From the NCBI GenBank assembly GCA_051294375.1, contig JBJCIZ010000344.1, positions 1 through 8,729 of the forward strand: a stretch of 8,729 nt of DNA. Direction: 5' to 3'. Of the stretch, positions 2,779 to 7,665 are shown in pieces. The number at the start of each line of letters is the position of its first letter. Position 1 is the stretch's first letter. The stretch is from Paraspadella gotoi (Eukaryota; Animalia; Chaetognatha). The notes beneath the pieces were generated by a model. It worked only from the letters and a program-made list of their open reading frames with translations. It did not search any database and was not told where the DNA came from. The position numbers and the translations under genes were made by a program.

Positions 2779-2937
2779 AAAGGTCCGGGGTTCTTAGCCC
2801 GGTGGCCGCCTATCAGTTAAGAGGGACGGGGCCTTAACCACATGTAACACGGTGTTACAGCCTGACGAGCTCAGGGACTGCTTATATTGAACGGTTCCGT
2901 CACTAACTCATTACAATTATTACTGTCTCTTCAATAT
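2779..2937 (+). mobile_element. 5'-truncated copy of the tRNA-headed twister-containing SINE-like element
   Basis: Collinear with 6693-6855 over its whole length (AAAGGTCCGGGGTTCT..AGCCCGGTGG; CAGTTAAGAGGGACGGGGC; TGTAACACGGTGTTACA; GCTCAGGGACTGCTTA; GTCACTAAC; ACTGTC..TTCAATAT). It starts inside the tRNA-like head, at the variable loop. Confidence 0.85.
2814..2880 (+). ncRNA. Degenerate (probably inactive) type-P5 twister ribozyme
   Basis: Keeps P5 (CAGTT/GACTG), GA-CGG, TAA, P3 (TGTAACA/TGTTACA) and P4 (CCTGA/TCAGG). L4 is shortened to CGAGC (vs TCCGAAGC) and the T2 GC after P2 is lost. Confidence 0.65.
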
Positions 2938-3136: not shown

Positions 3137-3592
3137 CTAAAGATGACGTCCTGCAGTGGAGGACGACGAAACCCTTTGTCGGGTTGATGTTGTCGGATCC
3201 GCGATAGAGAGCTGTGTGGCTTCATCATCGACTGCAGGCTTGTGTTGCGTCGTTGTCCGCGGACGGGAGTTGGCAAAGTGGACAGCGAACAAAAGGTTTG
3301 AGGTGGCCGCGAAGTCGAGGCGGAAGAATTTGGCGCCGCGAGAGACAATCTTGAACGGGCCGTCGTAGATTTGAGCCAGAGGACCGCGATGGGCGTCGCG
3401 GGGGTCGAGTGCGAAACGGTAACTTTGGAGGCTGTCTGGTATCTTTTGGCATGTCCCGTCGACCGGTCGCTGGGCATCCATCTCGCGCCGCAGGGCTTGA
3501 AGCAGTGCATCGAGATCGGGCGGCAGCACGCCGTCCGGAACAAATTCGGCGGGTCGTTGAGAAGTCCCGTATCTTCCGTGCCACTTCTTCAT
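3137..3592 (-). pseudogene. pol: Decayed Gypsy pol fragment, integrase C-terminal GPY/F region
   Basis: YGTSQRPAEFV (cf. YGttLRLPGEF), LQALRREM, RDAHRGPLAQIYDGPFKIVSRGAKFFRLDF (GPY/F motif), then HKPA (cf. RLKPA) and TAGRHL (cf. TRSGR). The DDE core and RT are absent. Confidence 0.85.
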
Positions 3593-4622
3593 TCAAGGGC
3601 GTGACAATATGGTGATTAGACCCTGCCAGAAAATTTAAAGTTTTTGATATAGCTCCTCACTAATGACAATATTTTTTTATAATAATCCTCATTGGAAAAA
3701 ATTTACAGGAAATGCTGAAAAACCAGGACATTTCTTTCATATCTTAAATAGTATTAATGATATATGAAGGAAACCAGATTTAATCTTTTAAAGCGTCAAA
3801 AACTGTACATGTTTAGATATCTTACTTGATGAAATGGAGACTAAATATGGAATTATGGATGTCTTACATTTAATTTATATTTTATTTTTAAAAAAAATTT
3901 AAAAACTATTGTAGTTTCATATGCTAATCTTTATTCCTATGTTTGGAAAAAACAGTAAGAAACAAAAATGACAATAAATTTTGAAAATTTTTTTTTATTA
4001 ATTGCTATTATTTCTTACTATGTTAATTTATTTTTTTTGTTATGCGCTTGAAAGATAGGCTAAACCCAACAGAATCGGAATAATTGCATGACCACTGTAT
4101 ATTTATTTGACATACACAGTAAATACAGCAAAAATAAAAAAAATTCAAAAAAAATTATGACTAAGCGCCGCGTTTATTTTCAGTTGTGGCACCGCAACCT
4201 TCAAAGCTCGATCAAGAATCTCTCTCTTCAACTGGTTCAGTTATTCAACCACTTGTCCTCACGTGCCTTACTTTTTGTCCTATAAATAGTCATATTGTTA
4301 TTGTTATCGCTTTGTTACAGTTGGAGAATACAAATCATTCTCGATCTGAACCTTCGTCTCGTTAACATCTAATGCCACACAGTATTTTTTAATCAAGACC
4401 TTTATTAGGGGCCGGAGCATTTTTAGATTCGAGTGGGGAGGTACTTTTGAGTCACACATAGGCCAAAATATCTCACATATCTTGACGCACAATTAAAAGC
4501 GATTAAATTATTCTGCCTATTTTTATGCTATATTTTTTAAGAAATCAACCTGGTGGAACTTTTGAAAACCAAGCAATTAAATTGTTTAGAAAAAATATAG
4601 TGCATTTAATATTATAATTAGA

Positions 4623-4814
4623 GAGAATTAATAATCCTATTTTGAGTACAATATTAGTTCACTTTACAAAAACTGATTTAAAAATAGAAAACATGTCATT
4701 AAGATCGAAGAGGAGAATAATAATCCTTTTTTGAGGACAATATTAGTTCAATTTACAAAAACTGACTTAAAACGGGAAAGCGCCGCATTAAGATCGAAGA
4801 GGAGAATAATAATC
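4623..4814. repeat. Tandem duplication, 89-90-bp unit, ~2.1 copies
   Basis: GAGAAT(T)AATAATC starts at 4623, 4713 and 4802. Shared blocks ACAATATTAGTTCA, TTTACAAAAACTGA and CATTAAGATCGAAGAGGAGAATAATAATC. Confidence 0.9.
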
Positions 4815-4815
4815 G

Positions 4816-4955
4816 GCTAAATTTTACTTTAGTCTACCGCAGTTTTGGCGGCTTTTGAAAAACCACTTAAAAATACTTATTTTAAAAAAAATTTAAAAAA
4901 TATTACCTATCCCTAACCCTTTTAACCCTAACCACCCTTAACCCTAAACTATCAC
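4816..4955 (-). repeat. Dispersed repeat (copy B, partial) with degenerate CCCTAA array
   Basis: Collinear with 6229-6365: GCTAAATTTTACTTT, CTTTTGAAAAA, TTAAAAATACTTATTT, TTTTAACCyTAACCACCyTTAACCCTAAA. Confidence 0.85.
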
Positions 4956-6171: not shown

Positions 6172-6228
6172 TAATTTTTTTAAGTTTTTTCAATTTTAAC
6201 CCACTTATTATCAAAAGATTAAAAAAAA

Positions 6229-6436
6229 GCTAAATTTTACTTTTGCCAACCTCGGTTTTAACAACTTTTGAAAAATAATTTAAAAATACTTATTTGAAAA
6301 AAATATTATTAAATTACCCTAACCTTAAACATTTTTAACCTTAACCACCTTTAACCCTAAATCACCCTTAAACCACTTTTAACCCTAGCCTTTACCTAGT
6401 ACTTAACCTTTCCGTAACCCTGGCCAGCGAAAGTAA
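6229..6436 (-). repeat. Dispersed repeat (copy C, longest) with degenerate CCCTAA array
   Basis: Matches copy B directly (6229-6365) and copy A in inverted orientation (6312-6436). Confidence 0.85.
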
Positions 6437-6650
6437 CTTGAAAAAAGAATTATACTTAATAAAGACAACTTTTCATAAGTTATCTGAATCTAATATAAAA
6501 ATTTTTTTAAAAAATTTAACATTTTTTATCTATAAATAAATATTAAAAAATTAATTATTAATGCTTTTAACTATTTTAAAAAAAATTGGTCTAATGAAAG
6601 TTTTTTCAGAAATATATTATGGTGGACTAAAATCCACCAACCGTTCATCA

Positions 6651-6723
6651 GCGGCCATTGGTGCCGGAGGCAAGTCATTCGCCTCCCATCCCAAAGGTCC
6701 GGGGTTCTAGCCCGGTGGTCGTC
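6651..6723 (+). promoter_or_regulatory. tRNA-like head with internal Pol III A/B boxes (SINE head or pseudo-tRNA, not a functional tRNA)
   Basis: 73 nt. Acceptor stem GCGGCCA/TGGTCGT (the other copy has the perfect complement TGGCCGC at 2803-2809). A-box-like TGGTGCCGGAGG (6659-6670). B-box-like GGTTCTAGCC in the hairpin CCGGG/CCCGG. TTCGCCT-nnn-A...AAAGGTCC resembles the tRNA-Val framework, with CCC at the anticodon position. D and anticodon stems are broken. Confidence 0.75.
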
Positions 6724-6724
6724 T

Positions 6725-6800
6725 GGCAGTTAAGAGGGACGGGGCGCTTAACCCGCCTGTAACACGGTGTTACAACCTGATCCGAAGCTCAGGGACTGCT
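6725..6800 (+). ncRNA. Twister self-cleaving ribozyme, type-P5 permutation, vestigial P1
   Basis: P5 GGCAGTT(6725-31)/GACTGCT(6794-6800). P2 GAGG(6734-37)/CCC(6752-54, one bulge). Conserved GA (6738-39). T1 CGG(6740-42)/CCG(6782-84). UAA (6749-51), predicted cleavage U6749|A6750. T2 GC(6755-56)/GC(6787-88). P3 TGTAACA/TGTTACA (6758-74). P4 CCTGA/TCAGG closing L4 TCCGAAGC, which matches the twister UCCNAAGC loop. Confidence 0.85.
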
Positions 6801-6927
6801 TACTTTAAACAGTTCTGTCACTAACACATAACAAATATCACTGTCTTTTCAATATGAAGTTTTATTTGAAAAGGTTTTCAAATCAAACTTCAGATTTACT
6901 TCATTGATAAAGTTAATTACAAAAAAT

Positions 6928-7011
6928 AAAAAAATCTTAATTTTTTATTTCTCCCCCAAATATATAAAGTTAAAAAAAATTATTTTATAAAAATATTATT
7001 ACAAATATATT
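6928..7011. repeat. Direct repeat, left copy (84 bp; partner 7584-7665), candidate long target-site duplication
   Basis: AAAAAAATCTTAATTTTTTATTTCTCCCCCAAATAT...TTATTACAAATATATT. The two copies differ only by two 1-nt indels. Confidence 0.93.
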
Positions 7012-7338: not shown

Positions 7339-7583
7339 GAGAAACAAAAACAACAGAGATAAATAAATAATAAAGATACATTTTTGCAATGTACAACAAA
7401 GATAAAGGAGTTTGAAAAAAAAAACTAACATTGGAGAAATTTTAACATTTAACTAGTGAATAAATAAGTAATTAGCTAAGGGATAGTTAAGTGAAAATGA
7501 AATATGAAAGAAAGTAGTTTTTAGTTTTAGTTGATAATTAGGAGATTAAGAAAGTGAAATTCAAGGGAAAGAAAGAGCCCAAA

Positions 7584-7665
7584 AAAAAAATCTTAATTTT
7601 TTATTTCTCCCCCAAATATTAAAGTTAAAAAAATTATTTTATAAAAATATTATTACAAATATATT
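7584..7665. repeat. Direct repeat, right copy (82 bp; partner 6928-7011)
   Basis: Near-identical to 6928-7011. Confidence 0.93.

Follow-up and report, generated by a model that had tools for sequence, protein, structure and literature searches.

The window, by which we mean the whole 8,729-nucleotide stretch of Paraspadella gotoi contig JBJCIZ010000344.1 that was analyzed, has a G+C content of 30% and contains a repeat at 6618-6851 that is very probably a long terminal repeat (LTR). Within the repeat, a tRNA-like segment is followed one base later by a predicted type-P5 twister ribozyme, and a second, damaged copy lies upstream (Table 1). The analysis drew on the window itself, contigs from public sequencing runs, pattern scans, and the literature, the papers named being cited from extracts.

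TABLE 1 Features of the putative LTR and of its second copy in the window
Feature	Position	Strand	Remarks
Second copy	2779..2933	+	5'-truncated, twister damaged; same CA end, then ATAT 2934-2937
Target-site duplication, left	6614..6617	+	ATAT, from sequence
Solo LTR (likely)	6618..6851	+	234 bp, TA...CA in the window copy; from contig depth and loose ends
Hairpin in LTR leader	6620..6639	+	7 bp, 5' of the tRNA part
Inverted repeat, left arm	6639..6647	+	9 bp, partner 6806-6814; 7/9 pairs in the window copy
tRNA-derived segment	6651..6723	+	A box 6659-6670, B box 6704-6712; CCC at anticodon position
Predicted type-P5 twister	6725..6800	+	One base 3' of the tRNA-like segment
P5 (predicted)	6725-31/6794-6800	+	7 bp
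P2 (predicted)	6734-37/6752-54	+	
General base G6738, then A6739 (predicted)	6738-6739	+	GA with catalytic G
PK2 (predicted)	6740-42/6782-84	+	3/3 Watson-Crick pairs, CGG/CCG
Self-complementary hexamer	6743..6748	+	In the place of P1; could pair two copies
Predicted cleavage site U|A	6749..6750	+	By homology to UAA of L1 (PMC8501958)
U6749-A6750-A6751	6749-6751	+	NAA motif with catalytic A (predicted)
PK1 (predicted)	6755-56/6787-88	+	2/2 Watson-Crick pairs, both G-C
P3 (predicted)	6758-64/6768-74	+	7 bp; base mismatch in the window copy
P4 (predicted)	6776-80/6789-93	+	5 bp, closes the 8-nt L4 loop
Inverted repeat, right arm	6806..6814	+	Partner 6639-6647
Sole T4 run in the LTR	6846..6849	+	Possible weak Pol III terminator; missing in the second copy
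Target-site duplication, right	6852..6855	+	ATAT, from sequence; second copy likewise CA-ATAT

Ends and abundance of the repeat

The ends of the repeat were located from contigs. In run X1, summed contig depth, which is not copy number and serves here only to locate the repeat ends, rises from values of 205 to 2,100 to more than 4 million at 6616-6643 and falls below 5,600 past 6853. Among the rows listed for contigs compared with 6560-6950, loose contig ends cluster at 6614-6618 and at 6851-6852, with an uncertainty of up to 4 bases at the left end. An initial sequence-only reading had placed the element at 6651-6855; the contig ends move it to approximately 6618-6851, such that the repeat starts 33 nt 5' of the tRNA-like segment, ends sharply at CA6851, and lacks an A-rich tail.

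That reading had also taken the second copy as a sign of a dispersed family, and this holds. The second copy (2779-2937 with its ATAT) lacks the 5' part, matches the 6618-6851 copy at 86% of 164 nt, and has a twister damaged in L4, P2, and PK1. In three runs of organism A, the host of the window, 13,315, 2,549, and 834 contigs lie on the repeat, covering about 6616 to 6853, and other left flanks occur at four places in at least 253 X1 contigs. The copy number is at least in the hundreds and probably in the thousands.

The ATAT on either side of the repeat constitutes a 4-bp target duplication, based on one intact copy. Alignments of 45 X1 contigs and 26 X5 contigs extend to exactly 6614, suggesting a target preference. 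The length of the duplication and the primer type (see below) point to an animal as host. In all three organism-A runs, the consensus 5' of 6618 ends in TG, with an agreement of 0.40 to 0.46, and in X1 it is G-rich; this TG may mark a polypurine junction, or the LTR may truly start with TG.

A primer-binding site follows the repeat in related contigs. In the single contig from organism B, CA6851 is followed by T-TGGTGAGCCCGAC, a motif that matches the tRNA-Trp site of Helenus-2_SyJa and Gypsy-32_NVi at 12 of 13 bases. The X2 consensus (14 contigs, agreement 0.50) continues T-TGGTGAG..GACTTCC, the same as the organism-B contig, and that of X1 (45 contigs) starts C-TGGT, a partial site. Among the seven rows compared at 6851, the site is clear in X2 and X10, partial in X1 and X5, and absent, with plain flank in its place, in X8 (1 contig), X9 (4 contigs), and X7 (4 contigs). 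Such mixed flanks are expected, since only 5' LTRs precede a primer-binding site. X1 and X2 come from one study and X10 from another, placing the clear sites in two studies and two organisms; the records of X7 and X9 agree in every length and depth, so that they represent a single, doubly filed data set, and because X9 is a DNA run, X7, which had been guessed to be RNA, is silent on expression. None of the listed contigs from public runs joins two LTRs or crosses the internal region. A Helitron terminus was considered for the CTRG past 6851 in two consensus lines, but this motif resolves into the primer-binding site in X2 and X10 and lacks a preceding 3' hairpin.

The tRNA-like segment and flanking pairings

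The A and B boxes and tRNA-like head recognized from the sequence are confirmed. At canonical spacing, with 6659 as position 8, the segment matches 17 of the 20 positions that are invariant or semi-invariant in tRNAs, and the best score elsewhere in the window on either strand is 15. The acceptor stem has 7 bp and the T-arm stem 5 bp, and the D and anticodon stems are degenerate and unpaired. ARAGORN made no tRNA call in the repeat and the Rfam tRNA model did not match it; the segment appears to be the vestige of a promoter, like the one in Helenus LTRs. Pol III transcription may terminate at the T4 run, short of the primer-binding site.

The two mismatches of the inverted repeat in the window copy are missing from most contigs, and by a rough estimate a repeat of this kind arises by chance about 1 time in 10, making it weak. 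Its arms could pair only in an RNA spanning two LTRs or in a circle.

A predicted twister with irregular features

The twister elements were ordered as in Table 1 of PMC8501958, with a permutation that places the opening at P5. The sequence-only reading had described a complete fold, which is correct for P5, P3, P4, both pseudoknots, the UAA, the GA, and L4, but overstated as a whole: P2 is short, a monomer can form no more than 1 bp of P1, and P3 carries a mismatch at its base in the window copy. With a 3-nt 5' strand, P2 forms either two pairs and a mismatch or three pairs with a bulge, where four pairs are usual. The atypical features are the 3-nt P2 strand, the nearly missing P1, the 5-bp P4, and the CGG/CCG pseudoknot. 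Pair probabilities of P4 and P5 are 0.998 to 0.999.

Specificity was assessed with descriptors written after the sequence had been seen. The strict descriptor (G-A, N-A-A, both pseudoknots, two P2 pairs, and P4 and P5 of at least 4 bp, with pairings free except for the GC of PK1) has a single match in the whole window, at 6738/6750/6781. Applied to dinucleotide-shuffled sequences, it matched 0 of 398,876 derived from the repeat and 7 of 9,387 derived from the window. A looser descriptor added two AT-rich sites in the window and matched 75 of 315,774 shuffles of the repeat and 1,167 of 4,449 of the window, and it is therefore unspecific in AT-rich DNA.

The covariance-model test proposed with the sequence-only reading came out negative: Rfam twister models gave no match to the repeat at E values up to 1 or 10. 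An Rfam score is a detection test and not a biochemical definition, and the descriptor of CHiTA itself recovered no more than 26% of the active twisters that have P5 (PMC11662667). In CHiTA (McKinley 2024), twisters withstood flaws in P1, P2, and P4 but not in the pseudoknots or catalytic bases, the sensitive elements being PK1, PK2, the catalytic G and A, the second A, and L4 (PMC11662667). At 6725-6800, every element that is sensitive by this measure is intact, and the odd elements (P1, P2, and P4) are those that CHiTA found tolerant. The twister is likely active in the family, and the cut at U6749|A6750 stands as a prediction.

Within the family, the four common polymorphisms of X5 in the tRNA-like segment and twister (6719, 6722, 6725, and 6765, at 18 to 58% of summed depth) all preserve the predicted fold, three by exchanging wobble and Watson-Crick pairs and one by lying in the P3 loop. 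At a cutoff of 1% in X2, X8, X9, and X7, all seven rows listed for 6726-6800 fall in P3 or its loop, and one of these, a single X8 contig, breaks a P3 pair. The mismatch at the base of P3 in the window copy is missing from over 95% of the depth. Most contigs preserve every CHiTA-sensitive position, and none of the common polymorphisms falls on one.

Single copies show decay of core CpGs, amounting to 2 to 7% of depth in X1 and 0.2 to 2.1% in X5. Among the rows listed (40 of 42), 19 of the 25 C>T and G>A changes lie at CpG, core positions included, indicating that inserted copies decay neutrally. The family is very uniform, with one-sided changes only and no compensatory double changes, which leaves the evidence for selection weak; metagenome scans yielded no distant homologues for covariation. 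The CpG bias in the decay of copies suggests methylation of repeats by the host.

Competing folds and pairing between copies

When pseudoknots are not counted, an alternative helix that traps PK2, P2, and PK1 is favored over the twister-compatible nested fold by 10 kcal/mol (-29.2 versus -19.1). A P2 probability below 0.2 also occurs in 4 of 8 phage twister candidates (see below).

The hexamer in the place of P1, one of 8 that are self-complementary among 229 in the LTR, could join two copies. For each pair of copies, joining through 6743-6748 would bring the energy of the twister-compatible fold down from -38.3 to -49.9 kcal/mol. Two misfolded monomers are nevertheless more stable, at -58.4 kcal/mol, and the best dimer found, at -71.9 kcal/mol, retains the blocking helix. 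We consider it doubtful that the element is a natural Pol III circular-RNA retroelement whose twister is a swapped dimer, with P1 formed from 6743-6748 between copies only. If it were, cutting would switch on once Pol III had read both LTRs, and together with the Helenus elements of Synergus wasps described below, it would define a convergent class of tRNA-promoter LTRs in which the class of ribozyme is interchangeable. Twister dimers were not found in the literature searched.

Scans for related twisters

In metagenomes, a 19-nt motif gave no matches, and a degenerate twister pattern gave 35, none with a P4 of at least 4 bp; BLAST of 287 metagenome loci against the LTR detected similarity in none. 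Narrow scans of viral sequences returned 11 loci, 10 with a P4 of fewer than 4 bp and the last without convincing stems. In viral contigs, the pairing filter was passed by 4 of the 121 listed matches (of about 190) to a pattern with a 3-nt P2, where 0.55 would be expected by chance, and by 4 of the 120 listed (of about 190) to a pattern with a 4-nt P2 (0.23 by chance). A P1 of 7 to 8 bp, which the filter did not require, is present in 7 of the 8 passing phage candidates.

Phage candidates with the permutation of 6725-6800 are predicted to have a 3-bp P2 in L144, L155, and L159, and L037 and L088 a CGG/CCG PK2 like that of 6725-6800, all having been selected by a pattern derived from that sequence. 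Candidates in P5 order near position 101 are L144, L155, L159, L193, L196, L029, L037, L088, and L118, of which L155 and L118 have nearly the same P1 but a P2 of 3 bp versus 4 bp. Several phage candidates have a GGAGG motif downstream, perhaps a ribosome-binding site.

Relation to known elements

The closest counterparts are Helenus and TRIMp3 (Kojima 2024, PMC10886601), with which the repeat shares a short LTR bearing a tRNA-like segment, the CA end, a primer-binding site one base past the LTR, and a 4-bp target duplication, this duplication being 4 bp (in animals) or 5 bp in Helenus. Helenus-2_SyJa and Helenus-2_SyUm have the same tRNA-Trp primer type, and some Helenus LTRs likewise start with TA (PMC10886601). 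Most Helenus LTRs differ in having a T run directly after the tRNA (PMC10886601). We therefore read 6618-6851 as most likely the solo LTR of a Helenus-like miniature, noncoding LTR retrotransposon. Its motifs occur in no Helenus family listed in the available part of the PMC10886601 supplement, and in the extracts of that paper the word "twister" does not occur and "ribozyme" appears only in a reference.

Inspection by eye of Helenus-2_SyUm-LTR and Helenus-2_SyJa-LTR from Synergus (PMC10886601, DataS1) revealed an unannotated, full type III hammerhead behind the tRNA, comprising a 7-bp stem I, CUGAUGA, stem II, GAAA, stem III, and complementary loops that can form a 12-bp loop-loop pairing. 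In both LTRs, the T run that usually follows the tRNA is missing, and they have the same primer type and the same ribozyme slot as the 6618-6851 LTR. Judging from these two wasp LTRs, the design appears to be a recurrent one. The case may be known to specialists, given that a 2020 review refers to work "in preparation" on type III hammerheads in insect elements (PMC7761336). The 7-mer pair 6641-6647/6806-6812 equals the core of the Synergus loop-loop pairing, possibly by coincidence. In the 6618-6851 repeat itself, no hammerhead was matched by Rfam models, and the ribozyme is twister-like; on the minus strand, a CUGAUGA at 6651-6645 was dismissed as a hammerhead because a GAAA partner is absent, by eye, within the repeat.

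Plant LTR retrozymes (Cervera 2016, PMC4918200) likewise have a ribozyme in each LTR, a primer-binding site, and a 4-bp duplication, are mobilized by Gypsy elements, and have a predicted circle. They differ in their type III hammerhead, tRNA-Met primer, 300- to 400-bp LTRs, and occurrence mainly in plants (PMC4918200), and extracts of three sources (PMC4918200, PMC7761336, 10.64898/2026.07.22.740005) mention no internal tRNA promoter for them. As modeled here, the 6618-6851 element would function in the manner of an LTR retrozyme while standing outside that group. Schistosoma Sm-alpha and the animal non-LTR retrozymes combine Pol III/tRNA sequence with a self-cleaving ribozyme (PMC7229834) and yield unit-length RNA from a longer transcript, and dimeric cutting is known there; in contrast, they have type I hammerheads and tandem repeats, with no LTR, primer-binding site, or polypurine tract (PMC7761336), and the 2020 review describes animal retrozymes as without LTRs and primer sites (PMC7761336).

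The twisters of the non-LTR retrotransposons Perere-3 and RTE also lie within retroelements and have a reducible P1 (PMC8501958, PMC7761336). They differ in having the P1-type order and in lying at the 5' end of coding LINEs, where they release the 5' end, and not in an LTR. Engineered cassettes are synthetic, with two different twisters and added ligation stems; one such cassette, Tornado, is driven by a Pol III promoter. In such tandem-twister circular RNA cassettes, as might occur here, two twisters produce ends that cells can ligate into circles (PMC7229834). A twister within an LTR, or a tRNA-promoter LTR with a ribozyme, was not found in the literature searched, which comprised sources other than subscription journals, Dfam, Repbase, and SINEBase; extracts of a 2026 preprint (10.64898/2026.07.22.740005) do not mention twister, tRNA, or Helenus. 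Related literature includes PMC6765202, PMC10085705, PMC13570524, and PMC12029980.

Proposed cycle and alternatives

If the repeat is an LTR, the functional RNA is probably a transcript running from one LTR into the next. An isolated copy has a transcript of 200 nt, which is probably not the functional form; a solo LTR such as 6618-6851 can yield short RNA only and is a dead end. In the proposed cycle, Pol III would transcribe from one LTR into the next, the twisters of both LTRs would cut to give a unit-length RNA, and this RNA, by analogy with plant LTR retrozymes and animal retrozymes, would be ligated into a circle that Gypsy enzymes could copy, as for plant hammerhead retrozymes. Solo LTRs would then arise by recombination or from short cDNAs. 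The published circle model of plant LTR retrozymes includes solo LTRs among its predictions (PMC4918200), and RNA of an animal retrozyme was circularized by RtcB in vitro (PMC7229834). The joint reading, in which a solo LTR of the Helenus kind with a tRNA-like segment and a predicted twister derives from an element whose unit-length RNA is likely circularized and copied by Gypsy, seems to us about evenly poised between right and wrong. The twister, the Pol III boxes, and the earlier guess of a twister-based retrozyme are all upheld as predictions.

Several other readings bear on parts of this cycle. The twister could be a dead or idle relic in a Helenus-like solo LTR that follows the ordinary linear LTR cycle. 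The short P2, missing P1, strong competing helix, and nil Rfam score all point that way, as does the fact that most published Helenus LTRs inspected by eye have no ribozyme (PMC10886601); but the sensitive positions are all intact in the bulk of contigs, with common polymorphisms elsewhere, and we regard a relic as rather unlikely. An active twister might instead serve to make 3' ends, the 5' copy being blocked and only the 3' copy cutting, which would produce a linear RNA with the 99-nt repeat 6651-6749 at both ends, suited to reverse transcription with normal strand transfer. The competing helix could block one copy, the LTR lacks the post-tRNA T run of most Helenus LTRs (PMC10886601), and the Pol III RNA of Cassandra is described as linear, with short repeats at its ends (PMC10886601). 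Since both LTR copies have the same sequence, however, one-sided cutting needs an extra rule, and plant LTR retrozymes show double cutting and circles (PMC4918200, PMC7761336); both the one-sided cutting and its linear product are accordingly judged unlikely.

That the LTR belongs to an autonomous Gypsy element and not to a miniature one is very unlikely: its primer type is shared by autonomous Gypsy elements and the internal region lies outside the listed contigs, but published elements with tRNA-bearing LTRs are all 311 to 1,263 bp and noncoding, and Pol III has been argued to be unsuited to long coding RNA (PMC10886601). The tRNA-headed SINE of the sequence-only reading, with a self-cleaving 200-nt transcript, is largely refuted and retains only the slightest probability. 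The tRNA head and its A and B boxes, the T4 close to the 3' end, and the 5' truncation of the second copy are all SINE-like, but the fixed CA end, primer-binding site, and 4-bp duplication are not, and a transcript of the element itself could not have supplied the 33 conserved bases that precede the tRNA. The tRNA-twister block may nonetheless once have entered an LTR as a SINE, as in the proposed origin of Helenus (PMC10886601).

If correct, the proposed cycle unites tRNA-promoter TRIMs and LTR retrozymes, so far described separately, and extends the role of twisters beyond the 5' ends of LINEs. It also offers a testable answer, a ribozyme-made circle, to the question of how an internal Pol III promoter can yield a usable template for reverse transcription, and the Synergus hammerhead supplies a named organism for testing the idea. 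Because Rfam misses the 6725-6800 twister, similar elements may hide in many genomes.

Other features of the window

On the minus strand at 3137-3592 lies a broken fragment that resembles an integrase C terminus and has a GPF motif; it has an Atlas lead to MLVIN_C at 0.94, no Pfam or database match, and no link that we found to the LTR element, and we take it to be a Gypsy remnant. Another repeat family, with GGGTTA-rich ends, occurs in both orientations at 160-253, 4803-4948, and 6216-6399 and is possibly a nonautonomous DNA element. Nested long inverted repeats with arms of 104 and 132 nt occupy 1630-2180 (foldback or MITE-like), 4620-4797 contains an 89-nt tandem duplication, and an 84-nt duplication is found at 6928-7011 and 7582-7665, 654 nt apart.
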